Assembly (NCBI RefSeq): GCF_014280195.1
Contig: NZ_CP047960.1
Coordinates: 1,680,001-1,712,000 of the forward strand
Origin: Synechococcus sp. A15-24
GTDB taxonomy: Bacteria > Cyanobacteriota > Cyanobacteriia > PCC-6307 > Cyanobiaceae
Length of the DNA: 32,000 bases
Direction: 5' to 3'
Position numbers and translations under genes: made by a program. Positions 1,616-16,989 of the stretch are shown here, piece after piece. Numbering within the stretch: position 1 is the first letter of the stretch; every line of letters starts with the position of its first letter. The notes beneath the pieces were generated by a model, which did not search any database, had not been told where the DNA came from, and was given only the letters and a program-made list of their open reading frames with translations.

Positions 1616-1834
1616 GTGCAACCACTACTGATGCCAAACCTTTTTGATCACGTCCCAGACGTTCCTCTGTTGCATAGCGTTAACCGATGGCCCAAGAGTT
1701 GCGCCAGAGAGGAATGGTTGCGAATAACTAAAGCCGCTGTGGCTAGCGTCATTGCAAATCTGGCAGATAACCTAGACGACGTGGAGCTATCACTCGTCGA
1801 GCAGCTCTTTAAAGAAGCAGATTTGTTGCCATGA
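1616..1834 (+). CDS. hypothetical small protein (island cargo)
   Basis: 72-aa ORF starting at GTG 1616, with an alternative ATG at 1631. It is on the same strand as the two upstream ORFs and 23 nt after them. Its stop is 8 nt from the convergent 1843-3015 gene. Confidence 0.45.
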   Translation: MQPLLMPNLFDHVPDVPLLHSVNRWPKSCAREEWLRITKAAVASVIANLADNLDDVELSLVEQLFKEADLLP

Positions 1835-1842
1835 GACCAGAG

Positions 1843-3015
1843 TTAATCGAGTTCCATTTCATTTATTGATTTCACCACTGAACGGGCTCTTTTTACTTGT
1901 GCAGGGTCACAGTATTTTTCTGCAAATTGCCACTTGCCCAATGAAATCAATTCACTTTCAAGTTCTGAAATAATGGACTCAAACTCAGCTGGCGGCAATT
2001 GGGTAAGCTCTGTTTTCCCTGTCCAATCCCTAAGATCCTCTGGGATATCCTGAAGTCCCCACCCAAATTTAAATGCTTGTTCAATAAGGACGCAGTCAGA
2101 TCTATCAGGGAAAAAGCGAGGTGCAATTAATTCGGGCCCGTATTTACCTTGTGAAGACCTTCGCTTCTTGTTGCTACTTATTCCGTACTTTGAGCATTTC
2201 GGGTTAGGGGACTCGTGCAGATATAGCTCACAGTTGCCTCCATAAGCAAGAGTGCCAGACAACGCTCTCCAAACGGTATCATTAGTTTTTCCATTATGTG
2301 CAGAATATATTGGTCCATATTTTCTGCCTAAGGCAGGACCTACTTTTTTTCCATTCGCTATACATTGGGCAATATGACAGCATTTAATACCACTTTTGTG
2401 GCCCTTCTTGGGTCCCGTCAGCCGCCTCTGCAAAACATCTTTTGGCTTTGCTGGGTGCACTTCGTTGTGACGTGTGCAGTAAAAATTCAGTACGGATCTG
2501 CAGGTAATGTATTCACCTGAAACCCATACAAGAGTGGGATTGTAGTTTGCTAGACGTTCCTGAAAACTCTCAGCATTTTTTCTATCTTTTTCTCTCCCTC
2601 TTTCTCTATTAGCCTCTAACATACAACATCTTAAGCCTTGGCCCTTTTTGCAGTGGTTGGGAGCGGCTTCAAAATGTTTTTGATGTTTTAAGCAAAGGTG
2701 ATAGATGGGCGTATCCTTATCAATATATTCTTCGAGTCGAATTACTTTTCCAAACTTGGCAAGATCTTCATCGTAAGTTGCTGCCGCTTTATCCCTCTTC
2801 CTTTGATTAGCTTCTTGCGCACGATGCCTTGCGCAGCACTCAAGCCCCCAGCCTCTTGCTACGATGCATGGCTTAGACGTATAAACTTCATCGTGTCTTA
2901 GACACAAGTAATAAGTGTCTCTCTCGTTACCAAGAAATTCGCCTACAAGTTCTACTCTCCCGTGAGAGACTATTTCAGCTAGATGTTGCTCCTTTGTTTT
3001 GCGTCGATTAGGCAT
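1843..3015 (-). CDS. triple Zn-binding-repeat protein with a C-terminal GIY-YIG/T5orf172-like putative nuclease domain
   Basis: 390-aa ORF. It has three tandem repeats of the pattern Y-x-C-x2-H ... C-C: YYLCLRHDEVYTSKPCIVARGWGLECC, IYHLCLKHQKHFEAAPNHCKKGQGLRCC and NFYCTRHNEVHPAKPKD...KSGIKCC. The C-terminus reads CELYLHESPNPKCSKYGISSNKKRR ... LIEQAFKFGW ... WTGKTELTQL, which resembles GIY-YIG-clan (T5orf172-like) spacing. This is the lowest-GC stretch of the island. Confidence 0.7.
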   Translation of the reverse strand: MPNRRKTKEQHLAEIVSHGRVELVGEFLGNERDTYYLCLRHDEVYTSKPCIVARGWGLECCARHRAQEANQRKRDKAAATYDEDLAKFGKVIRLEEYIDKDTPIYHLCLKHQKHFEAAPNHCKKGQGLRCCMLEANRERGREKDRKNAESFQERLANYNPTLVWVSGEYITCRSVLNFYCTRHNEVHPAKPKDVLQRRLTGPKKGHKSGIKCCHIAQCIANGKKVGPALGRKYGPIYSAHNGKTNDTVWRALSGTLAYGGNCELYLHESPNPKCSKYGISSNKKRRSSQGKYGPELIAPRFFPDRSDCVLIEQAFKFGWGLQDIPEDLRDWTGKTELTQLPPAEFESIISELESELISLGKWQFAEKYCDPAQVKRARSVVKSINEMELD

Positions 3016-3142
3016 TTTTTCCGTGTTACTTTACATCTCTGAGGTGCTCTTCTGGTGGTGTTTTCTTGGGCATTTAAAAGGATTTGCGCGTTTGATGCGA
3101 GTCGCTGCGCAACAGATTTATCCATTGTAGAGGAGCTGAGAA

Positions 3143-3529
3143 ATGGCCAGAACCAGCAGAGCTGAGCGCAACCGACGTCGTGAATCAGCGTTAACGCTGG
3201 TCAGCGAGGGAAAAGGTTTTAGTGATGTAGTGACCGCACAGATGGCGCAATGGGGGTGCAGCAGAAGTTCTGCGCAACGGGACTGTCGTTGGGCACACAA
3301 CCAGCTGCAGTTGGGCATGGATTCGCACGATGCTCAACATCTGATGGTGCACATGGCGACATCACTTCAACGCATTGCATTGAAAGCCGAGCAGGACAAG
3401 CAGTACGGCGCAGCGGTCGGTGCACAGAAGATGTTGTACGAGCTGCTGTTACGTCGACGGCTTGATGACGAAGCTGAGAAGGCAAAGAAACCAGGTTGGG
3501 GTTATCGCCATTGCAACACCAGGCGCTGA
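3143..3529 (+). CDS. hypothetical small basic protein with an N-terminal HTH-like segment (island regulator or DNA-binding protein?)
   Basis: 128-aa ORF. A basic N-terminus (MARTSRAERNRRRE) is followed by SALTLVSEGKGFSDVVTAQMAQWGCSRSSAQRDCRWA, which looks HTH-like. The rest looks helical. The functional call is inference only. Confidence 0.5.
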   Translation: MARTSRAERNRRRESALTLVSEGKGFSDVVTAQMAQWGCSRSSAQRDCRWAHNQLQLGMDSHDAQHLMVHMATSLQRIALKAEQDKQYGAAVGAQKMLYELLLRRRLDDEAEKAKKPGWGYRHCNTRR

Positions 3530-4207: not shown

Positions 4208-5611
4208 TCAAGTCTGGCCTTTTGCCACTGCAACACCGGCATTAGTTTTCTTCAGCGCAGCATCCATAGACTCGCGATCAAGCCAGTGACCGTAATGCCT
4301 GAGATGGGTCAGAAGCGAGTGCCGAAGCCACTTTGCAGCGACTCGTTCGTGCATGTGATTGTCAGATTCAATATGCGCTCGATACGCCCAGCCATGCCGG
4401 AATGAGTTTGCTGTGATGTTGGCGTTGCCAGCTTTGATGACGTCTCGCCAGTAGGGGAAGCGATTCAGCTGCTGCCCGACCTCACCACCAACACCTTGAA
4501 AACTATTCTTCTTCTCTATTGTAGAAATTTGGTTGCGTACGGCCTTCGGCAGCTTCACTAAGCCAGATTCGAATGCTGTCAGCATCTGCTCAGCTTCGCC
4601 TACAGGCCGACCCGCAATGGCCAGAGGCATCACAGGGTCAGGTGCCTTGATCGGTTTGTGCATAGTGCGATGGTTTCGTTTGATATGACCAACAGTCGCT
4701 TGACCGTCTTGCACCTGAAGCACCGCAATTTCACCTGGTCGTAATCCGAGATAAGCGATCAGCCCAACGCACAATTTCAGATCGTGGCGGCCAGCACTCT
4801 CCAGTTCATCCAAAAGATCACTGATCTGCTTGCTCTTGAGTGGTGGTGTGGTTTTGTCCGCTTCAACCTGTGCGCTGGCCGTACCGGTCAGCTGACGCAT
4901 CAGCTCAGTGCCTTGTGAACCTGATGGTGGTGCGAACCGTGGCGGAACCATCTGACGCTCGACAGACCATTTCAGAAATGCCGAGCAATCTTTCAAAGCT
5001 CGGATTCGCCCTTGGCCGCCAGCACTGACGGAAACGTTGCCGTCCGTATCGTAAAAATGCTGCTCCGCATAAGCCTGCAGAGCCGCTTCACCATTGCGTG
5101 GCTTTGGTGCTGACTCTAGGGTTTGCAGCAGTTTGTTCAAGCGAGCTGAGGTCCATTTCAGAGTGTTGGGGCGATTGCCAGCCTTTGTCGCCATGAAGCT
5201 GGCAAGAGCTGATTCCCACGCTTTTTGGCCAGTGACACCGGCAACGCTTGCAGAAGGCTTTTTCGGATCATCCAAAGAATCTCCGTACAGCTTCACCGCC
5301 TTGGAGAGAGAGAGCTGCTGAACCTCCATCAGCTCACGCACGGCCTTGACCCAGTTCAAGATTGGAGTCGAACTGGCCTTGGTCCAGGGCAACGGCAGAT
5401 ACGCAGAAGACCTTGAACCGTCTTCGAAACGGCGCGTGAGCTGCACAGTTCCGCGATGGTCACGAATGGACCAACCGAAGCCTTGCTCGGCCTTGAGCAG
5501 CTTTCTGCAAGTTACGAACCATTGCTCTCTCGTAGAAGCCATGACCAACTGCCTTGAAGCATCACAGGAGCCTGTGCGCACAATTGTGCGCAGAATCGTT
5601 GCAACGGTCAA
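4208..5611 (-). CDS. int: tyrosine recombinase / phage-type integrase
   Basis: 467-aa maximal ORF. The C-terminal catalytic elements are readable: GLRPGE (Arg I), NSFRHGWAYRAH (H-x-x-R), WLRHS and LRHYGHW (Tyr). The first 23 codons overlap the 37-bp arm repeat (5571-5607). The ATG at 5542 (MASTREQWF..., 444 aa) is therefore the more likely true start. Confidence 0.88.
   Translation of the reverse strand: MTVATILRTIVRTGSCDASRQLVMASTREQWFVTCRKLLKAEQGFGWSIRDHRGTVQLTRRFEDGSRSSAYLPLPWTKASSTPILNWVKAVRELMEVQQLSLSKAVKLYGDSLDDPKKPSASVAGVTGQKAWESALASFMATKAGNRPNTLKWTSARLNKLLQTLESAPKPRNGEAALQAYAEQHFYDTDGNVSVSAGGQGRIRALKDCSAFLKWSVERQMVPPRFAPPSGSQGTELMRQLTGTASAQVEADKTTPPLKSKQISDLLDELESAGRHDLKLCVGLIAYLGLRPGEIAVLQVQDGQATVGHIKRNHRTMHKPIKAPDPVMPLAIAGRPVGEAEQMLTAFESGLVKLPKAVRNQISTIEKKNSFQGVGGEVGQQLNRFPYWRDVIKAGNANITANSFRHGWAYRAHIESDNHMHERVAAKWLRHSLLTHLRHYGHWLDRESMDAALKKTNAGVAVAKGQT
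5571..5607 (+). repeat. 37-bp arm repeat, copy B
   Basis: CCTGTGCGCACAATTGTGCGCAGAATCGTTGCAACGG is 32/37 identical to 384-420. GTGCGCACA is at 5574-5582 and GTGCGCAGA at 5586-5594, 12 bp apart. One further GTGCGCA lies at 5630-5636. Confidence 0.7.
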
Positions 5612-5721
5612 CCAGGAGTTACAACTTCTGTGCGCATAGCCTTGCCTAACACCTAGTCATACCAACGGTTATCACTAGTGTTCATGGGATTTTGACCTTG
5701 ATACAGCGCCCTTTGACCAAG

Positions 5722-5764
5722 TGCCTTCTAAGCAGTCGGTCGATGGTTCGAATCCATCAGGGGG
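5722..5764 (+). repeat. attR-type partial tRNA-Arg copy (3' 43 nt only, not a gene)
   Basis: Identical to 280-322. The upstream sequence cannot form the acceptor 5' strand or the D arm. Two TTTGACC heptamers (5691-5697 and 5712-5718, 21 bp apart) sit immediately to its left. Confidence 0.9.
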
Positions 5765-5880
5765 AGTTCAAAGAGAGGCCATTCTTTGAGGTCGAACACA
5801 TGGCCATGGGAGGTCAGAAAGGGCAAGAAGGCTGTTGCTCGAGACCTGTTGGGGACGGTGGCGATGACCACCATGCAAAC

Positions 5881-6060
5881 TCAAGCTTGTTGACTGCTCG
5901 CAAATTCGAGGTCAGCCCAGGTCAGTCCAACCCATTCCAGTCCCTCCTGGATGTCTTGCTGAAGTGCAGCAGCCTCTTCAACAGCATCCATCTCGATGAG
6001 GTCCAGATATTTCTGGTACTCAGCCATCCAGGCGATGAGATTCGGAGTGCTGTTCGTCAT
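5881..6060 (-). CDS. small acidic helical protein (59 aa), hypothetical
   Basis: My own translation gives MTNSTPNLIAWMAEYQKYLDLIEMDAVEEAAALQQDIQEGLEWVGLTWADLEFASSQQA, then stop. It has a clean ATG and protein-like composition. It is below the ORF-track cutoff. Its ATG overlaps the stop of ORF 6057-6260 as ATGA. Confidence 0.5.
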   Translation of the reverse strand: MTNSTPNLIAWMAEYQKYLDLIEMDAVEEAAALQQDIQEGLEWVGLTWADLEFASSQQA

Positions 6061-6262
6061 CCTTCGATTCTTAAGCCTGGACCGGCCGAGAGGCTGGCAT
6101 CTTGGATACAGCTTCCGTTGAAGCCCAAGCTTCCTCGCGGTTGCAGGGCAGAGGGACGGCGACCCCCGCGAAGGTGCAGAAGACTTGCCTCAACGTTCAG
6201 AACATTCCAACCAAGTACTTTGTCTTGGTCGCAAGTAGCTCTTGGCAAAACGGGTCGCACTA

Positions 6263-6442
6263 ATGCTCACAACAGCAGCGATGTGGTTCGTCCAATCAGT
6301 CCATGCCTCTGAATGCGTCACCGTGACGAGCAACAACGATCCAAGTCGTGATGGCATGGTCTGCAAGCGCGTCGCCAGAAGTAGCACCAACGGGATTGGC
6401 TTCTGGAGGTGCTGTCCTCAAACAGACGCGACAAACGACTAA
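6263..6442 (+). CDS. possible small secreted Cys-containing peptide
   Basis: The sequence is MLTTAAMWFVQSVHA/SECVTVTSNNDPSRDGMVCKRVARSSTNGIGFWRCCPQTDATND. It has a short signal-peptide-like N-terminus and 4 Cys in the remainder. The track ORF begins at TTG 6242. Confidence 0.35.
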   Translation: MLTTAAMWFVQSVHASECVTVTSNNDPSRDGMVCKRVARSSTNGIGFWRCCPQTDATND

Positions 6443-6597
6443 CCAATCAGAAGGACCAACGGCAACCCCCACCCCTGTCAGGCACTCAACCCAAGCACCC
6501 CTGACGGCGTTAGCATTGACCAGTCAGAATTTCCACTTCGATCATCATCCGGAGCTGCCACATATCAGCGCCTTAACAACTGAGCTTCTTTAGGCTA

Positions 6598-6873
6598 TTG
6601 TTAGTAGAAGAAAGTTGTGACAGCAAAATCAAAAACAATCAGTTTCAACCCACAGAGAAGGACTCAAAAAGGAGTCAGCATCTCAGACAAGCTGAGGCCT
6701 TCTTCCAACAGGCTCAAGCCTTGATTGAAAAAAGCGAAGACTGGCATGGCTGCGGATCTCTCATTCTCAAGGGCCTATCGGAAGAGCGCAAAGCGCAGAA
6801 CTCTGGAATTCAAGTGATGAACATGATTCGAAAGCGTCCTAAAATACGCGTTGAATTCAGCTTCCGAAGCTAA
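6598..6873 (+). CDS. hypothetical ORF in an AT-rich patch (TTG start, weak)
   Basis: 91-aa ORF with only a TTG start. The sequence is plausible but unrecognised (QAEAFFQQAQALIEKSEDWHGCGSLILKGL). It lies in a low-GC segment. Confidence 0.25.
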   Translation: MLVEESCDSKIKNNQFQPTEKDSKRSQHLRQAEAFFQQAQALIEKSEDWHGCGSLILKGLSEERKAQNSGIQVMNMIRKRPKIRVEFSFRS

Positions 6874-7106
6874 TTGAACACCTGGCCATAGCAGGCAGTA
6901 ACTTTCTTTATTGAAATATCCTTTGTGCCAATTATTTGCTTGCGTTCACTAGCATTTGTCGCACGCCATTAGCCTAAAAACAAGAGGAAACAGAAAATTT
7001 GAGCGGCTGCCGGCACTGAAAAATGCTTTGATGACCAAGACTTGTGATTCAGATCACCTTTTTTGAGGATGATCTCTGAGAAATTCAACAAAAGATCAAT
7101 CAACCC

Positions 7107-7406
7107 ATGGCTGCCAAATTTCTGAACAATGTCCGTGTGATCTGCAAAGCGGGTTGCGAAGAGTCATTCATTTCGGCAACACAAGCATGGGTCAACCCTG
7201 AGGGAATGTTGGATGCCTATTGGGCCAAGACCGGGGAGCGGCGTTACTGCTTCGTGGGTCTCTGGGAAAGCGAAAAGAGCCTTGTAGATGCTCGGCCCCA
7301 GATGATTCAGCATCTGAATGATGTGCGTGATCTCCTCGAGGAGCTATCGCCAGAACTTGGCGTGACGGATCCCGTCTCCGGCACTGTTGTGACCCACAAG
7401 GGTTGA
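7107..7406 (+). CDS. small alpha/beta protein, possibly ABM (antibiotic-biosynthesis-monooxygenase-like) fold
   Basis: 99-aa ORF with an ATG start. The pattern ...CFVGLWESEKSLVDARPQMIQHL... resembles ABM-family proteins. The assignment is by eye only. Confidence 0.55.
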   Translation: MAAKFLNNVRVICKAGCEESFISATQAWVNPEGMLDAYWAKTGERRYCFVGLWESEKSLVDARPQMIQHLNDVRDLLEELSPELGVTDPVSGTVVTHKG

Positions 7407-7876
7407 TCAGCATCAACACAGTTTTCAAGGTTGCAACGCCATCAAGACTCCGCCCTTGAGGTCCTGGGTTCAAACTCCATTCACTTCACCTACTTGCCCA
7501 TGGTCAGATTGGTGGGCCTGAACGACAGCGAATCTCGCTTTGCAACAAAGTCTCTCGGTGTCAAGGTTGCTTTGTTCTGATTCTTCGAACTGCTGATCTG
7601 CAATCTCGATCAGGAACGTGCCTTTTGAAATTTGGTGGGGAAAGGTTTCGTTCCCTGCCTGCTGAGCCTTGCTGTGATGGACCTTCTCATCATTCCGCGG
7701 GTCAGGCGCAGACTGCGCAGGTGACCAGGACACGTCCCCATGTCGATCGAAACCCTGGAGCAAATCGTGGCTGTGCTGGTCACGGCGGGGCTCGTCGCCG
7801 GAAATTTCCTGATGTTCACCCCCTGGCGCGATGGCCACGATCCACGTGAGCGCTGGCCCGCCCACAACACCAACGA

Positions 7877-8173
7877 TCAGCTCTCGGCAAAGTGGGATTC
7901 AGCCAACCGCTGCAACAGCTTCAGAGATTCCAGAACCTCCAAGCGTTTCTGCGCTTGAGCCAGCATCGGCTTGCCATGGGGCACACAGGAGTCGATCAGG
8001 GAGGCGGCCTCTGAGGCTTCCGCTTTGACCCAGGTAAGGCAGCGGTCGATCTGCTGAGCCACATTGCCCTCCTTGAGGGCACCGGCATAGTTCGGCCCGG
8101 CAATGGCGAGGAGCAACAACCGCAACGCCTGATCGGCGCTCTCCTGATCGGGGGGCAATGCGTCAGTCATCAA
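7877..8173 (-). CDS. hypothetical helical protein
   Basis: 98-aa ORF starting at TTG 8173 or ATG 8170. It overlaps the stop of the upstream gene (ATGACTGA). The composition is protein-like. Confidence 0.5.
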   Translation of the reverse strand: MMTDALPPDQESADQALRLLLLAIAGPNYAGALKEGNVAQQIDRCLTWVKAEASEAASLIDSCVPHGKPMLAQAQKRLEVLESLKLLQRLAESHFAES

Positions 8174-8487: not shown

Positions 8488-8643
8488 ATGCTGCTGACCA
8501 GTCCACCGGCCGAAACCCGTGAGTGCAGCAGTTGCGGCAAAACGCTGTCGCTCAATTTCTTCGCGCTCGACACCCGTGAGTGCCGTCGCTGTGAAGCGCA
8601 GCGCAGCAGCCAGCTTCAGGCCTCACTTCAGGAGTCGGCCTAG
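8488..8643 (+). CDS. possible 51-aa zinc-ribbon-like peptide (CxxC...CxxC)
   Basis: My own translation gives MLLTSPPAETRECSSCGKTLSLNFFALDTRECRRCEAQRSSQLQASLQESA. The 12-nt ACCCGTGAGTGC is repeated in frame (8515-8526 and 8572-8583). Its TAG (8641-8643) interlocks with the convergent stop of the protease gene (CTAG). Confidence 0.4.
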   Translation: MLLTSPPAETRECSSCGKTLSLNFFALDTRECRRCEAQRSSQLQASLQESA

Positions 8644-10007
8644 AGCCCCTCAAAGCCGCTGAACAGGGCATGCCGTTCAAGATCCAGGTCACTCACACCT
8701 GGCAGTTGCGCCACCACACGACCATCAATCAACACCTGGCTGCCATCGTCAACTGAATAAAAGGTCACCGCACTGACATCAACATCGAAGACCAGTCGAT
8801 CCTTGCGGGGGTTGAAATCGGTCACCTCCACCAGTGCACCCTGTTGGGCTGAAATCCAGAACTGATCCTTCCCTTTGCCACCGGTGACCCGGTTGCCATC
8901 GCCACCGCCGGCAGCCAGAACATCAGCGCCTTTCTTTCCCTTCAGCCGGTTGTCAGCATCGTTGCCAATCAGGAGATCATCTCCCTTGCCACCGATGGCG
9001 ATCTCAATCACACAAAACCCCGCAGGCTGGCCGAGGTTTCTGCCGTCCCAGTCGTGGGCAATGGTGAAACCACCGAAGACGTCCTCCGCGCGGCTGACAT
9101 AGCCACCGGCATTGACGTCATCACCAAGGGTCGCGTTGCGCAGATCGATGGTGACAGGAGCTGTGGCACCAGCTGCCGTGATGCGGTCCACCCCGCCGGT
9201 GTCCCAGATCGCACGCCACCCCGTTCCCTGGCGATTCTCCAGCGGCAAGGTGTAAGTGTCATCTCCGGAGGCAGCGTCAGGATTGATTCCGTATATCCAT
9301 TGCAATGCAGCAATATCCAGCGCCCCCGGCGTCTGCAGAAAGCCGTAAGCGTCGATCGATTCCGGAACCATTCCATTACGAGCTCCCTTATCGACGTAGC
9401 TGAGCTGTGTGAAGGGGTGGGCGTTCTGGTCAAAATCGCCTTTGTCCCGAAATTCATTCGACCTGTGCGTCAAACCAGGGAAACGGGGTTGATCAAGCAG
9501 ACCTTTGTCATGGGGATGCTTAAGGCCAATTGCATGACTGAGCTCATGCAAAAACGTGATGCCGTAGAAGCTGCCGGAAGCAATCGAATTCTTGAAACTG
9601 CCATCAGCGTTTTGATAGGTCGACCAGTTGATGGCCACCAACCCTTCATCAGAGTCGCTGCCGGGGGTGTAGGCGAAGCCATAGCTTCCTTCTGACTGAC
9701 GTTTATCGAGGTTGTAATACCAGATTTCCACCCCATCGTCGTTGTCATCTCCGCGGTCGTCGAACTGAAGAGAACAAACCGCAGAGATTTCCTCCATGGC
9801 ACCCTCCATGAGCTGGCGCTCTTGATCACTCCAACCCCAGGAGGGATAGCCCCCGAACTCACCACCCGGCCGATCAGATGTATCGCTGATGAAGGTGGTG
9901 CCGACAGCAGGGTCTGTCGCTGTGGTGCCCCAGCGGAAGCCGTCCGTCAGACCATCAATCCAGGCATTGCCTGAACGAGGTACTTCGATTGCAGTTTTGT
10001 AGGCCAA
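8640..10007 (-). CDS. serralysin-like (M10-type) zinc metalloprotease with C-terminal RTX calcium-binding repeats
   Basis: The HExxHxxGxxH motif is present in FLHELSHAIGLKHPHD. GGxGxD-type nonapeptides are present (GGKGDDLLIGNDADNRLKGKKGADVLAAGGGDGNRVTGGKGKD). There is no N-terminal signal peptide, which fits type I secretion. Confidence 0.88.
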   Translation of the reverse strand: MAYKTAIEVPRSGNAWIDGLTDGFRWGTTATDPAVGTTFISDTSDRPGGEFGGYPSWGWSDQERQLMEGAMEEISAVCSLQFDDRGDDNDDGVEIWYYNLDKRQSEGSYGFAYTPGSDSDEGLVAINWSTYQNADGSFKNSIASGSFYGITFLHELSHAIGLKHPHDKGLLDQPRFPGLTHRSNEFRDKGDFDQNAHPFTQLSYVDKGARNGMVPESIDAYGFLQTPGALDIAALQWIYGINPDAASGDDTYTLPLENRQGTGWRAIWDTGGVDRITAAGATAPVTIDLRNATLGDDVNAGGYVSRAEDVFGGFTIAHDWDGRNLGQPAGFCVIEIAIGGKGDDLLIGNDADNRLKGKKGADVLAAGGGDGNRVTGGKGKDQFWISAQQGALVEVTDFNPRKDRLVFDVDVSAVTFYSVDDGSQVLIDGRVVAQLPGVSDLDLERHALFSGFEGL

Positions 10008-12134: not shown

Positions 12135-12977
12135 TCAACCAGGCTTGCGCAACCGCATCAGTCCCCAGCTGAGGCGTCCCTGCTGGCCACCATCCACCCA
12201 GTGGCCAAGGCCCACATCCATCCGATCGAGATAACCGGAACTGATGCTGGTTTCCAGCTGTGCACGACGTAACCGGGTGTCCTGCCGGACCCGGTCGTAG
12301 TGACGCACGAGCATCTCAGTGCGTTCATCCCAAACCTCCATCGTCAGGCCAACCGCATCTCCCCAAGCCCTGTATCGACTCGGTGAGGCAAGGTCGGGGA
12401 GATGAATACGGTCGAGGATCGGCTGCAGCAATCCCATCTCCACACCATCGGCCGCCATCGGATCGGTGAACACGAAACATCCCCCAGGCTTCAGCAGGCG
12501 GGACACCTCGGCCAACACCTTGGCTCGATCGCCGGCATGCAGGATGGCATCCTGACTCCACACCAGGTCTGCACTGGAATCGGCCACGGGCACCTGCTCA
12601 AACGAAGCGTCGTGCACCGTGATCTGCTGCTCAAGACCGGCATTAACATTTAGTCGACGATGGCGGTCGTTCTCAACCGCCGAAATGTTGATGGCATGAA
12701 CCGGTCGCTCACTCCAGCGAGCAAGGCGCCGGGATGCTCCGCCGTAGCCCGCCCCAAGATCCACCACGCATCCGCCTTGAGGCAGTGGGTCGGCCAGCTC
12801 AAGCAGGGCATGCACCGTGCGGTCACTGGCCGTCGCGATGGCCTCATCCGGCGTTGCATACAAACCGATATGAATATCCTCCCCACCCCAAACCTGTTCG
12901 TAAAACTGATCAGCGTCCTGACTGTCGTAGTAGGTCGCCGCAACGGAATCCGCCGCAGAGCCATTCGTTGTGCCCAT
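12135..12977 (-). CDS. gbmt2: dimethylglycine (sarcosine/dimethylglycine) N-methyltransferase, last step of glycine-betaine synthesis
   Basis: 280 aa. The N-terminal motif YYDSQDADQFYEQVWGGEDIHIGLY is characteristic of SDMT/DMT enzymes. The SAM-binding VVDLGAGYGG is present. It lies immediately downstream of the GSMT gene. Confidence 0.85.
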   Translation of the reverse strand: MGTTNGSAADSVAATYYDSQDADQFYEQVWGGEDIHIGLYATPDEAIATASDRTVHALLELADPLPQGGCVVDLGAGYGGASRRLARWSERPVHAINISAVENDRHRRLNVNAGLEQQITVHDASFEQVPVADSSADLVWSQDAILHAGDRAKVLAEVSRLLKPGGCFVFTDPMAADGVEMGLLQPILDRIHLPDLASPSRYRAWGDAVGLTMEVWDERTEMLVRHYDRVRQDTRLRRAQLETSISSGYLDRMDVGLGHWVDGGQQGRLSWGLMRLRKPG

Positions 12978-12982
12978 CAGCC

Positions 12983-13831
12983 TCAGTGCATGGTGGTGTC
13001 GACGTCGAAGCGATATTCCTTCTCCGCGACGTGAACATAAAAATCGGGATTTTCAAAGTCCCGCTGATAATCACCAAAGCTGGTGATCTGCTGGAAGCCA
13101 ACCTCAGACATCAGACGACGGACGTAGCCGTAGCGCAACGGGAACATGTTGAGGTGATAGACCCCACCATCACTGAAGGAATAACGGAAGCGCGCCAAAC
13201 CTTCATCAACATGCTCAGGACCAACCTCCACATCTTTTCCGCAATAGACATTGCCTTTGCCCTGTCGAACGGCCGATCCGCCCTCCAGCAGCCGGTCGTA
13301 ATTGCGGTGATCAAGAATCAAGATGCCATTGTGCTTCAACACGGCGTAATACTCAGCCAGAGCTTTACGCCGATCCCGCTCCTTGAACAGGTGGGTGAAT
13401 GAATTACCAAGACAGATCACAGCATCAAACTCGCCGTGAATGTCACGATTGAGAAAGCGCCAATCCGCCTGCGATGTCCTCAGCAGCTGATCACGGTTGC
13501 GAGCATTGCGAAACGCCCGGGCCAGCATGTTGGGGCTGCCATCCGCACTGACCACATCAAATCCTTCCTCCAGCAATCGGATGGAGTGAAAACCAGTTCC
13601 TGTGGCTACATCCAGAACCGAACGGGCACCGTGCTCCTTGAGCAGACGGATAAAGAAATCACCCTCCGCTTCAGCCCGTGCATTCCAGTCGATCAATCGA
13701 TCCCAGCGATCGGTGAAGTCTTCGATGTACTCCTGCTGGTAGTGATCCGTCTCGCGAACCGATTCAGGAGATTGTCCAAAACGCTGCTGATCGTCCTGCG
13801 TTTGCAATGGATGGTTCTGCGTTGACGTCAT
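12983..13831 (-). CDS. gbmt1: glycine/sarcosine N-methyltransferase
   Basis: 282 aa. The sequence ...DHYQQEYIEDFTDRWDRLIDWNARAEAEGDFFIRLLKEHGARSVLDVATGTGFHSIRLLEEGFDVVSADGSPNML is typical of GSMT, with the SAM motif VLDVATGTG. It is the first gene of a two-gene operon. Confidence 0.85.
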   Translation of the reverse strand: MTSTQNHPLQTQDDQQRFGQSPESVRETDHYQQEYIEDFTDRWDRLIDWNARAEAEGDFFIRLLKEHGARSVLDVATGTGFHSIRLLEEGFDVVSADGSPNMLARAFRNARNRDQLLRTSQADWRFLNRDIHGEFDAVICLGNSFTHLFKERDRRKALAEYYAVLKHNGILILDHRNYDRLLEGGSAVRQGKGNVYCGKDVEVGPEHVDEGLARFRYSFSDGGVYHLNMFPLRYGYVRRLMSEVGFQQITSFGDYQRDFENPDFYVHVAEKEYRFDVDTTMH

Positions 13832-13917
13832 TCCAAATCAATTCGAAGTTCAAACAGGCTCCTTGACGTTCATTAAGGCAAGGACAATCCAAACCCGAAT
13901 GAATAAAATGAAGCCTT

Positions 13918-13934
13918 TGTGATCTGCAATCACA
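13918..13934. promoter_or_regulatory. CRP-family-like palindrome TGTGATCTGCAATCACA in the gbmt / proVWX divergent intergenic region
   Basis: The arms TGTGAT/ATCACA are perfect 6-bp inverted repeats around a 5-bp centre. The site is 87 nt upstream of the gbmt1 start and 178 nt upstream of the proV start. It is one base longer than the canonical TGTGA-N6-TCACA. Confidence 0.4.
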
Positions 13935-14111
13935 CGACTGAAACCTAGACACAGCCTGGCTGGTTGTCAGTGATTGAGAGAACAATCGGCCACCAGCAGC
14001 ACAGTTCAGACCACAAGACCCACTGCCGCGCAGGCAGACGCAGGGAATATTTCAACATTCAAAAATCGAGCTGAGCATGCCTAACATTTCATTAGCGGGT
14101 GTTGGGCTGGC

Positions 14112-15116
14112 ATGAATGAGCCGATCCGCCTCCGGGAGGTCTGGAAAAGTTTCGGCGGCAGGCCAGGAGCGTCGCCAGCCGAACTACTTCAGTCCTCTGA
14201 AGCCAGGGTTGCTGTACAGGACGTCTCCCTGGAGATCAGGGCCGGGGAGATGTTTGTGGTGATGGGGCTGTCCGGATCCGGCAAGTCCACCCTGTTGCGC
14301 ATGATCAATGGCTTGATCAGCCCAAGCCTTGGGGTTGTTGAGATTGAAGGGCGACCGCTGCAGCAGTTCAGCCGAGGCGAACTGCGTGCCCTCAGGCGGC
14401 GCAGCATGGCGATGGTGTTCCAATCCTTCGCCCTTTTTCCGCAGCGCAGCGCGCTGGAGAATGCAGCCTTTGGGCTTGAAATGGCCGGCGTCCCCCGCCG
14501 CCAACGCCTGGCCAAAGCTCAGCAGGCGCTGGAGCGGGTTGGCCTCGGTGGGGATCTGCACCGCACGCCGGATCAGTTGTCCGGCGGCATGCGTCAGCGG
14601 GTCGGTCTGGCGAGGGCTCTGGCGTTGGATCCCCCCGTTCTGCTAATGGATGAAGCCTTCTCGGCGCTGGACCCGCTGATCCGTGCCGATATGCAGGATC
14701 TGCTGCTGGATCTGCAACGGGAACACCGGCGCACCATTGTCTTCATTTCCCATGATCTGGATGAAGCGGTGCGGATCGGCGATCGCATCGCGTTGATGCA
14801 GGACGGACGTCTGCTGCAGTGCGATACAGCGGAAAAGCTGTTCCGCACCCCCGCCGAGCCGGCGGTGGCTGAATTTTTCCGTGGTGTTGATCCCGCTGGC
14901 GTCCTCACCCTTGGAGCCATTGCCGAGCCATCGCCACTGACTGACGGATGGGATCCCAAGGATCCCGACCTCACCGTGCTCTCCTCAGCCATGCTCCTCA
15001 AGGAGGCCATACCGATCGTCACGGCCGCAAACAGGCCTGTGGCGGTTGTCGGCAACGATCACCATCTGATCGGCTCGGTGTCACCCAACACGATCCTGCG
15101 GGCGCTTAGTCGATGA
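14112..15116 (+). CDS. proV: glycine betaine/proline ABC transporter, ATP-binding subunit
   Basis: Walker A is GLSGSGKST, the signature is LSGGMRQRVGLARAL and Walker B is VLLMDEAFSALD. It has a short C-terminal regulatory tail. Its stop overlaps the proW start (ATGA at 15113-15116). Confidence 0.9.
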   Translation: MNEPIRLREVWKSFGGRPGASPAELLQSSEARVAVQDVSLEIRAGEMFVVMGLSGSGKSTLLRMINGLISPSLGVVEIEGRPLQQFSRGELRALRRRSMAMVFQSFALFPQRSALENAAFGLEMAGVPRRQRLAKAQQALERVGLGGDLHRTPDQLSGGMRQRVGLARALALDPPVLLMDEAFSALDPLIRADMQDLLLDLQREHRRTIVFISHDLDEAVRIGDRIALMQDGRLLQCDTAEKLFRTPAEPAVAEFFRGVDPAGVLTLGAIAEPSPLTDGWDPKDPDLTVLSSAMLLKEAIPIVTAANRPVAVVGNDHHLIGSVSPNTILRALSR

Positions 15117-16027
15117 GTGAGCTCTTCAGTCAGCTGTGGCTGGCACAGGCCAGCGAAGCCGGGGCGGTGGGCGCGACAGCCGACAGCATCGTGAGCTGGC
15201 TAATTGGCAACGGCGGTGCCCTGTTCAGCCTGATCAACACCGTCATCTTTGTGCTGACGGCGTTCGTCGAACAGCTGCTGAATGCACCCGCCCCCTGGCT
15301 GCTCGCACTGCTGGTGGCACTGCTGGGGCTCTGGCGTGTGAGTGCCGCATTCGGTCTTCTCAGTCTTCTCGGTCTGAATCTTGTGCAGACCATGGGCCTG
15401 TGGGAGCCAATGGTCAGCAGCCTGGCCCTTGTGCTGACCGCCTCCCTGCTGGCCCTCGCGATCGGTCTTCCTTTGGGTGTGCTGGCTGCCCGTCAGCGAA
15501 GCATCTGGCAGCTCACCCGTCCGCTGCTGGATCTGATGCAGACCATGCCGGCCTTTGTATACCTGATTCCTGCCGTGATGCTGTTCAGCACCGGCGCCGT
15601 TCCTTCGGTGATCGCCACGTTGATCTTCGCGATGCCACCGGTGGTAAGGCTCACCGTTCTGGGCATCCGCCAGGTTCCGGCTGATCTGATCGAGGCCGGG
15701 CGATCCTTCGGCTGCTCCGAGTGGCAGTTGCTCACCAAGGTGCAACTGCCCAACGCTCTTCCCACGCTGATGACCGGCGTGAATCAGACGATCATGCTGG
15801 CCCTTTCGATGGTGGTGATCGCCTCGATGATCGGTGGTAGTGGGCTGGGTGATGTGGTGCTGCGGGGCATCCAGCAGCTGAACATTGGCCTGGGCTTTGA
15901 GGGAGGCCTGGCCGTGGTGATCCTGGCGGTCATCCTGGACCGTCTCAGCCAGAGCCTCAGCACACCCCCCAGCCGATCCGCGCGGGATCGGGTCCGCAGC
16001 CTGGCCACGCTTTGGAGGATTCGATGA
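15113..16027 (+). CDS. proW: glycine betaine/proline ABC transporter permease
   Basis: A multi-TM protein with the conserved loop IEAGRSFGCSEWQLLTKVQLPNALP. It sits between proV and proX. Confidence 0.9.
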   Translation: MSELFSQLWLAQASEAGAVGATADSIVSWLIGNGGALFSLINTVIFVLTAFVEQLLNAPAPWLLALLVALLGLWRVSAAFGLLSLLGLNLVQTMGLWEPMVSSLALVLTASLLALAIGLPLGVLAARQRSIWQLTRPLLDLMQTMPAFVYLIPAVMLFSTGAVPSVIATLIFAMPPVVRLTVLGIRQVPADLIEAGRSFGCSEWQLLTKVQLPNALPTLMTGVNQTIMLALSMVVIASMIGGSGLGDVVLRGIQQLNIGLGFEGGLAVVILAVILDRLSQSLSTPPSRSARDRVRSLATLWRIR

Positions 16028-16989
16028 ACAAGTTTCAGCTCTGGCGACGACGCAGTGTGCTGCTGGCTGGCTTGGGTCTGGCGGGTGCCTCCCTGCACAA
16101 CCTGGCTAGCCGCCCTGAAGCCGACACATCCGCCCCGGCGACGGACACGCCTGGATCAACGTCCCAGGTTCAGTCGAGCAACGACCGCAACTCTGCCGGT
16201 GCCCCCTTGAAGCTGGGCTGGTCGCCTTGGGCCGATGCCGAAGTGGTGAGTCTGATGGCGACCCAGCTGATCGAATCGGAGTTGAATCAACCGGTGGAAC
16301 GGGTGATGGCCGACATCGGCATCCAATACCAATCCGTGGCCCGCGGCGATCTGGACCTGATGCTGATGGCCTGGCTGCCAGGCACCCATCGGGATTACTG
16401 GAGCAAGGTGCGTGATCGAGTGCTGGATCTCGGGCCGATGTATTCCGGCCGGCTTGGCTGGATCGTGCCCGACTATGTGCCAGAGGAGGTGATTGCCAGC
16501 ATTGAGCAACTCCAGGATCCGCAGCTGGCGGCTCGCTTTGATGGCAGGGTCCAGGGCATCGACCCGGGGTCTGGCCTGAACCAGGCCTCACTGAAAGCCC
16601 TGAAGCAATACGGATTGACGTCTATGGAGCTGGTGGCGTCCAGCAGCGCGGCCATGGCTGCTGTGTTGGCCCAGGCGATCGACGAGCAACGCTGGCTGAT
16701 CGCCACGAGCTGGACCCCCCACTGGATGTTTGCCCGCTACAAACTGCGCTTCCTTGACGACCCCAAGGGCAGCTTCGGAGCAACAGAACGCATCCATGCC
16801 GTGGCTCGGCAGGGCATGGATCAGCTGCATCCTGCGGTGACAGCGTTCCTCAGCCGCTTCCATTTACCTGAGAGCGACCTGGATGGCTTGCTGCTGCAGG
16901 CCCAGGAGTCATCCGCCGAGACCGCGGTGTCGACCTACCTGGCTCGCCATCCCAATCGGGTTCGCTACTGGACGACAGGAAAGATCTAA
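16012..16989 (+). CDS. proX: glycine betaine-binding periplasmic protein
   Basis: OpuAC-type substrate-binding protein (LGWSPWADAEVVS...). The signal region contains WRRRSVLLAGLGLAGA, which is twin-arginine-like. ATG 16024 forms an ATGA overlap with the proW stop and may be the real start. Confidence 0.88.
   Translation: MEDSMNKFQLWRRRSVLLAGLGLAGASLHNLASRPEADTSAPATDTPGSTSQVQSSNDRNSAGAPLKLGWSPWADAEVVSLMATQLIESELNQPVERVMADIGIQYQSVARGDLDLMLMAWLPGTHRDYWSKVRDRVLDLGPMYSGRLGWIVPDYVPEEVIASIEQLQDPQLAARFDGRVQGIDPGSGLNQASLKALKQYGLTSMELVASSSAAMAAVLAQAIDEQRWLIATSWTPHWMFARYKLRFLDDPKGSFGATERIHAVARQGMDQLHPAVTAFLSRFHLPESDLDGLLLQAQESSAETAVSTYLARHPNRVRYWTTGKI

Follow-up and report, generated by a model that had tools for sequence, protein, structure and literature searches.

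What kind of gene lies between two conserved backbone genes of a small mobile element in the chromosome of the marine cyanobacterium Synechococcus sp. A15-24? The gene in question, referred to here as the nuclease gene, is found within a 5.4-kb element at tRNA-Arg(tct), and the whole stretch of DNA that was analysed, hereafter the window, comprises 32,000 nucleotides (contig NZ_CP047960.1, positions 1,680,001 to 1,712,000). An earlier note, made from the letters of this stretch alone, had read the encoded protein as a DNA-reading zinc-finger array fused to a T5orf172/GIY-YIG-clan nuclease of the homing or exclusion type. That core inference is supported by our analysis, the reading and cutting of DNA being predicted from sequence. 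Most likely, in our view, the gene is selfish, encodes a DNA-cutting enzyme and travels on another mobile element. The more specific reading that we favor, on balance, is that a free-standing gene on a tycheposon-like island encodes a T5orf172-branch nuclease resembling homing endonucleases, with the uninterrupted junction between the backbone genes orf72 and orf128 as its probable target. From N- to C-terminus, the protein comprises three CapR-type zinc-finger modules, then a linker and a T5orf172-like domain, and finally a helical extension (table 1).

The three modules are ∼58–69 amino acids (aa) long, and in each a short strand (VELVGEF, IRLEEY or VWVSGEY) precedes a C-x2-H knuckle and, further on, a CC pair. 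All of the strings on which the repeats were originally recognized are present, including the strands (VELVGEFLG at residues 21–29, IRLEEYID at 92–99 and VWVSGEYIT at 163–171) and the knuckles and pairs (C38/H41, C108/H111 and C180/H183; CC at 60–61, 130–131 and 212–213). The proposed consensus Y-x-C-x2-H holds in part: C-x2-H occurs in all modules, but the spacing of the preceding tyrosine varies (YLC, YHLC and YC). Hidden Markov models (HMMs) of one module, built from the nine family members, recover the other two modules in the window protein with independent E-values of 1e-7 to 1e-17, and hhalign comparisons of module with module give probabilities of 99.3–99.5%. On these sequence comparisons the three tandem modules are true, mutually homologous repeats, with chance ruled out, as the earlier note had proposed. 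Members of the nuclease family have either three or four finger modules, all twelve C/H/C/C positions of the window protein are invariant across the alignment of the nine-member family, and module 3 contains an 11-aa lineage-specific insertion. In an AlphaFold (AF2) model based on the family alignment (predicted local distance difference test score, pLDDT, 83), every C-x2-H lies between two strands and every CC pair heads a helix of ∼30 residues; in module 1, the knuckle falls between strands at residues 34–38 and 43–47 and the CC pair opens a helix at 59–88. We take this arrangement, a strand–knuckle–strand unit with CC at a helix, to be the treble-clef layout.

Profile and fold matches link the modules to phage endonucleases. 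PHROG endonuclease families cover residues 4–197 of the window protein (phrog_681, 3e-17; phrog_559, 8e-10; internal parts of both families). A relative with 44% identity to the window protein (P0007) scores 36.7 bits on Pfam CapR (PF21817, cut-off 24.2) and has precomputed matches to PF05265 (DUF723) and PF21817; CapR is matched by five of the nine family members, four of these below threshold. A BFVD fold search with the whole model returned phage proteins named T5 Orf172, GIY-YIG nuclease and CapR-homology, with a probability of 1.00 over ∼350–420 aligned columns. Judged by these matches, the modules are CapR-homology/DUF723-related treble-clef zinc fingers, which agrees with the kinship to DUF723-type repeats suggested earlier. 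CapR fingers have been described with CxxC...CxC zinc ligands (PMC8096241, PMC10448857). The window modules instead carry C-x2-H...CC, with four candidate ligands each, and their ligand pattern is therefore a variant of the published one.

The C-terminal region (residues 244–390) is the best-conserved part of the nine-member family and contains the strings that had prompted the comparison with T5orf172, namely CELYLHE...KKRR (262–286), CVLIEQAFKFGW (308–319) and WTGKTELTQL (331–340). The elements of its core follow in the order beta1 with Y265; beta2 with K276-x-G278-I279; a helix with R286 and Y292; beta3; a helix with R305 and E312; and W331-G333-x-T-E336. An exhaustive profile search with residues 244–390 against 1.84 billion representatives found 267 proteins at E ≤ 1e-3, in which the domain is nearly always C-terminal, after 130–450 variable residues. 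Across 120–147 of these relatives Y265, G278, E312 and E336 are invariant, and K276, I279, R286, Y292, R305, P325, W331, G333 and F364 are at least 90% conserved.

As a reference for hhalign, we used the nuclease domains of five phage proteins that pass the Pfam T5orf172/MUG113 cut-offs and also have CapR/DUF4379 fingers. The window family aligns with this set at 95.9% probability (E 5.5e-9, 86 columns), compared with 0.0–2.0% for a reversed and twenty column-shuffled controls, and the nine-sequence family profile alone gives 89.8%. The motifs are in register, with LYLY opposite lYIm, K-x-GIS opposite KIGIS, R286 opposite the Arg, E312 opposite E..H and W-G-x-TE opposite F-dGatEfF. The match spans positions 19–109 of the query only, placing the family-specific extension at residues 353–390 outside it. 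A bridge to Pfam is provided by one relative (P0034, E 2.7e-20 to the window family profile), which scores 23.4 bits on T5orf172 and is the one of ten diverse relatives sampled to pass the cut-off of 20; another relative (P0063) reaches 18.4 bits, just under it, and none of the nine close homologues gives a T5orf172 or MUG113 match. Modelled on its own, the domain is predicted with high confidence (pLDDT 94.4, pTM 0.88) and in the order b1-b2-a1-b3-a2. From these alignments we conclude that the C-terminal domain of the window protein is a divergent T5orf172-like domain, the identity that the earlier note had proposed; T5orf172 is assigned to the GIY-YIG superfamily by Pfam and in published work (PMC8096241, PMC10448857, PMC8263062). 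An hhalign comparison with a seven-sequence profile of I-TevI-type GIY-YIG domains gave 1.6%, which we do not count against the assignment because the T5orf172 positive control also failed (5.3%), leaving the test without power.

The location of the gene is best understood by comparison with related elements. In the window, a 1.3-kb AT-rich segment bearing the nuclease gene on the minus strand lies exactly between orf72 and orf128. At an empty junction (locus L021), the orf72 and orf128 homologues share nucleotides, the stop of the first running into the start of the second (TAGTG) with no nuclease gene present, and in four elements at tRNA-Arg(tct) (L017–L020) a 62-aa open reading frame (ORF) at the orf72 position, with no detectable homology to orf72, overlaps the orf128 start and the nuclease gene is absent. 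Synechococcus AG-686-B21 has a 42%-identical nuclease homologue in the same slot on the plus strand. The slot is thus occupied on the minus strand in the window, on the plus strand in L001 and L006, and by a different nuclease in L005. This last occupant, from Synechococcus AG-686-F08 (L005 6568–7917), is an unrelated gene for a 449-aa protein with about five DUF4379/CapR/DUF723 fingers and a GIY-YIG-like C-terminus (WFYLM...QQIGIS...R; Pfam GIY-YIG E 0.007, below cut-off), and tblastn with it gives 246 matches in phages, among them T5-like endonucleases and the Hef-like homing endonucleases of AR9/PBS1.

The three slot occupants have a guanine-plus-cytosine (GC) content of 0.42–0.43 versus 0.48–0.55 for their backbones. 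In the window the nuclease gene has a value of 0.431, compared with 0.517 across the remainder of the island and 0.612 in host DNA, making the gene the most AT-rich feature within the island, as had been remarked from the sequence. It is also convergent with the small-ORF operon as described, the orf72 stop (1832–1834) and the nuclease stop (1843–1845) being separated by 8 bp. The backbones closest to that of the window (orf128 84–98% identical; L004, L023 and L026) have no nuclease and carry other cargo upstream of orf128, and the orf128 family comprises more than 165 clusters versus 9 for the nuclease family, indicating a sporadic distribution. Free-standing homing endonuclease genes would be expected to leave just such a footprint at a single junction, namely sporadic occupation in either orientation and replacement by another nuclease. 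The mobile context anticipated for the gene is likewise borne out by its presence/absence polymorphism at the tRNA-Arg(tct) element.

The sequence data show homologous domains, conserved catalytic-type residues, a foreign base composition and a gene that is present, absent or replaced at one junction; nuclease activity, a target site and homing itself we infer. Three treble-clef CapR-type fingers, spaced by ∼30-residue helices, would read an extended DNA site, and a flexible linker would tether the C-terminal nuclease domain, which would cut nearby via a Tyr265/Lys276/Arg286/Glu312 (metal) set. The natural target would most likely be the uninterrupted orf72–orf128 junction of related elements, and the gene would be copied into that junction when the break is repaired with a nuclease-bearing copy as template (“intronless homing”).

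Several results weigh against this reading. Neither the window protein nor its N- and C-terminal parts searched separately, as the earlier note had advised, match Pfam CapR, T5orf172 (PF10544), MUG113 (PF13455) or GIY-YIG at E ≤ 10, and this includes the N-terminal fingers against CapR and the C-terminal 165 aa against the three nuclease models. Foldseek with the confident C-terminal model found nothing in the Protein Data Bank (PDB) at E ≤ 0.001, the best thematic match being Slx1 (7cq3_A; E 1.7, probability 0.23, TMq 0.33), and a profile search of PDB sequences with the C-terminal domain found nothing. The GIY-YIG-like fold that the earlier note looked for in structure searches is borne out only in part: the full-length BFVD matches are strong, but the C-terminal domain alone has no significant match in the PDB. 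The whole model also found nothing in the PDB with Foldseek, which is to be expected because it is multi-domain and flexibly linked. A search for phage homologues, which the earlier note had advised, gave one weak tblastn match among INPHARED phages, confined to the fingers; in IMG/VR, scans with the nuclease domain found no relatives and those with the backbone genes found nothing. Near-identical nuclease copies at other loci were not found either. At the junction itself, unrelated cargo occurs upstream of orf128 in other elements, including RTX-like (L004), YadA-like (L023–L025) and ADH (L026 and L028) genes, and since the slot also holds unrelated cargo, general cargo turnover in place of site-specific homing is a possible explanation. 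Moreover, the nuclease copies of the window and L001 are 42% identical and their backbones 36–44%, an equal divergence, and one ancient insertion followed by inversion could possibly explain both copies. Alignment of the DNA of the window and L001 at the insertion junctions is uninformative, the backbones being too diverged.

The variable cargo position of the gene also invites the idea that it serves its carrier, its fingers targeting a cyanophage or competing mobile element and its nuclease degrading or nicking the target. T5orf172 nucleases do serve as weapons in phage–satellite conflicts (PMC8263062, PMC10448857), as when ICP1 deploys the nuclease Odn against the PLE satellite (PMC8263062), tycheposons have been described with defense and adaptation cargo (bioRxiv 10.1101/2020.12.28.424599), and one member of the wider family (L039) is located in an island beside GmrSD. 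We nevertheless regard a defense or exclusion role as somewhat unlikely. No family among the PADLOC-DB defense models matches the window protein at E ≤ 1, no conserved partner, immunity or sensor gene adjoins the nuclease gene, whose neighbors are always element backbone, and the family is very rare. Two different homing-type genes, in two orientations at one junction, fit selfish invasion better than selected cargo.

A contribution to the life cycle of the island can also be envisaged, in which a nickase or endonuclease starts recombination or cargo exchange at orf72/orf128, or else replication or mobilization of the excised element. The occupied junction is where the cargo of related elements differs, phage nuclease genes have been reported at boundaries of genetic exchange (PMC10448857), and the window element is without the helicase/primase module that its relatives have. 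However, most related elements, including the closest backbones, have no such nuclease and yet are widespread; it follows that the nuclease cannot be required for the element, and we judge such a role to be improbable. Even more doubtful, and in our view very improbable, is domestication of the protein as a DNA-binding regulator whose nuclease domain is dead and which tunes or represses island or phage genes. CapR sets a precedent for fingers derived from a homing endonuclease gene acting as a repressor (PMC8096241), and the nuclease gene is divergent from orf128, with a 127-bp control region in common. Against this, Y265, R286, E312 and E336 are invariant or nearly so in 147 relatives, which is unexpected for a decayed active site, and CapR itself, on our reading of the published work (PMC8096241, PMC10448857), is equivalent to the finger-bearing N-terminal part of such enzymes.

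A homing-endonuclease-like nuclease of this design has clear counterparts. The earlier note knew of no described family with this exact architecture, but the combination of fingers and T5orf172 is already published for phage homing endonucleases (PMC10448857, PMC8096241): CapR, DUF723 or DUF4397 zinc fingers, often repeated like beads on a string, occur in 200 of 229 such phage enzymes (PMC10448857), and ICP1 proteins with T5orf172 C-termini have N-terminal domains that are relatives of CapR (PMC8096241). Like the window protein, the phage enzymes (ICP1, T5-like; PMC10448857) have an N-terminal array of CapR-type fingers and a C-terminal T5orf172-type nuclease, and they are encoded by free-standing genes that occur sporadically between conserved genes and swap their DNA-binding front end. 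The window protein differs from them in being unrecognized by the Pfam T5orf172, MUG113 and CapR models, in its finger ligands (C-x2-H...CC as opposed to CxxC...CxC) and in an extra conserved C-terminal helical extension of ∼38 aa. The phage genes are moreover phage-borne and typically located beside essential phage genes, whereas the window gene resides in a chromosomal tRNA-integrated element.

Three further systems share parts of the design. CapR of the Vibrio cholerae PLE satellite (PMC8096241) has a homologous zinc-finger domain and is likewise encoded on a chromosomally integrated mobile island, but on our reading it corresponds to a finger region and acts as a transcriptional repressor (PMC8096241, PMC10448857), whereas the window protein combines three fingers with a nuclease domain in which catalytic-type residues are conserved. 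We do not rely on CapR lacking a T5orf172 domain, because another paper from the same group labels PLE1 CapR “T5ORF172 domain.” Odn (ICP1 Gp88), an active T5orf172 nuclease retaining the catalytic Arg and Glu (PMC8263062), also has its T5orf172 domain guided by a swapped-in sequence-specific DNA-binding domain, which in this case is a RepA_N domain in a phage-encoded protein aimed at a satellite. I-TevI has a comparable modular design of nuclease, linker and DNA-binding region including a zinc finger, and the spacing Y265-(11)-K276-(10)-R286 equals that of its Y6/Y17/R27 (I-TevI sequence verified at 100%); it differs in having the nuclease at the N-terminus rather than the C-terminus and in its second Tyr, which is Lys in the window protein, the T5orf172/MUG113 signature. 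What is new here is a divergent sequence family missed by Pfam, a variant zinc-ligand pattern, the C-terminal extension and a nonphage carrier.

The nuclease family is small, with only eight other close relatives (27–73% identity) in a protein database of 5.8 billion sequences, and a metagenome profile scan with a tight alignment returned four short marine contigs. Every related locus comes from a single-cell genome of marine Synechococcus or from a marine metagenome. Among close-family members the most distant (P0009; L003 189–1367) has four fingers, and its gene is directly upstream of a DNA polymerase A gene and also near an XisAC-type recombinase, a placement typical for phage homing endonuclease genes. 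The wider T5orf172-like domain family comprises at least 267 clusters, mostly outside Pfam coverage (relatives P0010–P0155). The N-termini of most of these wider relatives are helix-turn-helix (HTH) arrays (HTH_23/38/7, CENP-B_N, Sigma70_r4) rather than zinc fingers, and the domain is therefore a module that swaps its DNA-binding front end. Many wider relatives are found on contigs of 2.1–2.8 kb that are hardly longer than the gene, one of them named “transposase” by JGI, and such genes may be mobile or present in many copies. Where longer contexts are available (among L035–L037 and L039–L042), they are islands or mobile elements with GmrSD, ArdC or DUF3987.

Table 1. Features of the nuclease gene and its carrier element, with positions counted from the first nucleotide of the window
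Feature	Position	Strand	Basis or remark
tRNA-Arg(tct)	251-324	plus	integration site
attL	273-326	plus	3' part of tRNA-Arg, 54-nt repeat
orf72, backbone gene left of junction, last of small-ORF operon	1616..1834	plus	homologues in L001, L005, L021, L023
Nuclease gene, 390 aa, ATG start	1843..3015	minus	ORF list, 9-protein family, alignment, AF2 model pLDDT 83
C-terminal helical extension, residues 353-390; conserved G360, W362, F364, A365	1846..1959	minus	conservation, AF2 helices
T5orf172-like (GIY-YIG clan) nuclease core, residues 262-352	1960..2232	minus	hhalign, conservation, AF2, P0034 bridge
Linker from finger array to nuclease domain, residues 219-261	2233..2361	minus	AF2: partly disordered, pLDDT<50 at 227-243
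Zn-finger module 3, residues 150-218; C180, H183, C212, C213	2362..2568	minus	alignment, repeat HMMs, AF2
Zn-finger module 2, residues 79-136; C108, H111, C130, C131	2608..2781	minus	alignment, repeat HMMs, AF2
Zn-finger module 1, residues 9-66; C38, H41, C60, C61	2818..2991	minus	alignment, repeat HMMs, AF2
AT-rich 127-bp spacer between divergent nuclease and orf128 starts	3016..3142		part of inserted segment
orf128, backbone gene right of junction	3143..3529	plus	family >165 clusters
Excisionase-like gene, 78 aa	3698..3934	minus	position beside int and conservation in related elements
Divergent tyrosine integrase	4208..5611	minus	PF00589 E 9.5e-4, 166/172 profile positions, below Pfam cut-off
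attR	5715..5768	plus	54-nt partial tRNA-Arg direct repeat, 94% identical, far end of element

The spacer between the nuclease gene and orf128 presumably holds both promoters. GAGGAG precedes the orf128 ATG within it, and no match to a sigma-70 consensus was found there. Around the nuclease gene a search for inverted and direct repeats, promoters and terminators found none above chance, so there is no evidence of an invertible cassette or of terminal repeats. Sequence searches with the window protein (whole, N-terminal part and C-terminal part) against Pfam, NCBIfam, PADLOC and PDB sequences gave nothing useful, and matches to U1snRNP70_N and S1_RRP5, which were below cut-off and within charged linker helices, were rejected as noise.

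The carrier matches the description of a tycheposon-like element. Tycheposons target seven tRNAs including Arg-tct and Ala-ggc (bioRxiv 10.1101/2020.12.28.424599), and the elements related to that of the window sit at tRNA-Arg(tct) and tRNA-Ala(ggc). Features in common with tycheposons are integration at tRNA-Arg(tct), a partial tRNA repeat, a divergent tyrosine recombinase, a xis-like gene and variable cargo, as well as the helicase of related elements (AAA_25 in L005 and L017). Unlike tycheposons, which have been described mainly in Prochlorococcus (bioRxiv 10.1101/2020.12.28.424599), the window element is a minimal one of 5.4 kb without a replication module, helicase and primase both being absent. 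Its backbone operon consists of orf58, orf136, orf115, orf72 and orf128. The integrase is 40–48% identical to those of L005 and L017 (48% versus L017–L020), and the 78-aa excisionase-like protein, which has no Pfam match, is 43–52% identical to the products of int-adjacent genes in L005, L017 and L021.

A 33-nt direct repeat (91% identical) is located just inside attL and attR, at 386–418 and 5573–5605 of the window, and each copy holds TGTGCGCA-N4-TGTGCGCA, making the two copies candidate arm-type binding sites for the integrase or Xis. One related locus, L026 (also L027), has two orf128-family genes 2.7 kb apart on one contig (1881–2267 and 4646–5029), which suggests tandem or nested elements; the second of these genes in L026 directly follows a 61-aa ORF and represents another empty junction. 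Just past attR, window positions 5769–8000 have a GC content of 0.52 versus 0.61 for the host and contain short ORFs only, and this region is probably a remnant of older integrations beside the tRNA, as in the tycheposon model of island growth. A serralysin/RTX-like metalloprotease gene is found just outside the island (8640–10007, minus strand), and metallopeptidase-like (HExxH) genes recur as cargo of related elements (L001 7472–8146, L004 278–1303). A glycine-betaine module at 12135–16989, with genes for sarcosine/dimethylglycine N-methyltransferase and a ProV-type ABC transporter, is ordinary host content and consistent with a marine Synechococcus; together with psbA, MutS2 and HemB, these genes mark the host as a cyanobacterium.

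Homing endonucleases combining CapR fingers with T5orf172 have so far been characterized in phages and their satellites. Here the same design, divergent and missed by Pfam, is nested in a tRNA-integrated element of marine Synechococcus. The insertion site is known to the nucleotide, and empty and alternatively occupied alleles are both on hand. With a candidate target, catalytic-type residues and candidate zinc ligands, the locus offers a testable system for asking if the islands, which carry cargo and drive the genome plasticity of ocean picocyanobacteria, exchange selfish nucleases and are reshaped by them. Beyond this locus, the family of at least 267 clusters, whose T5orf172-like domain is unannotated and in most cases joined to an HTH array, could help the annotation of marine metagenomes. 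A broader proposal, which we think unlikely, is that homing-type nucleases colonized picocyanobacterial tycheposon-like elements by cutting the translationally coupled orf72/orf128 junction, and that the resulting breaks could create a hotspot of cargo exchange. Two observations are compatible with it: different CapR-finger nucleases have entered this junction on at least two occasions, and sister elements have unrelated cargo at that position. Such a hotspot would parallel the “nuclease genes at boundaries of genetic exchange” of phages and, if it is real, the nuclease family would drive gene flow between the islands of oceanic cyanobacteria.

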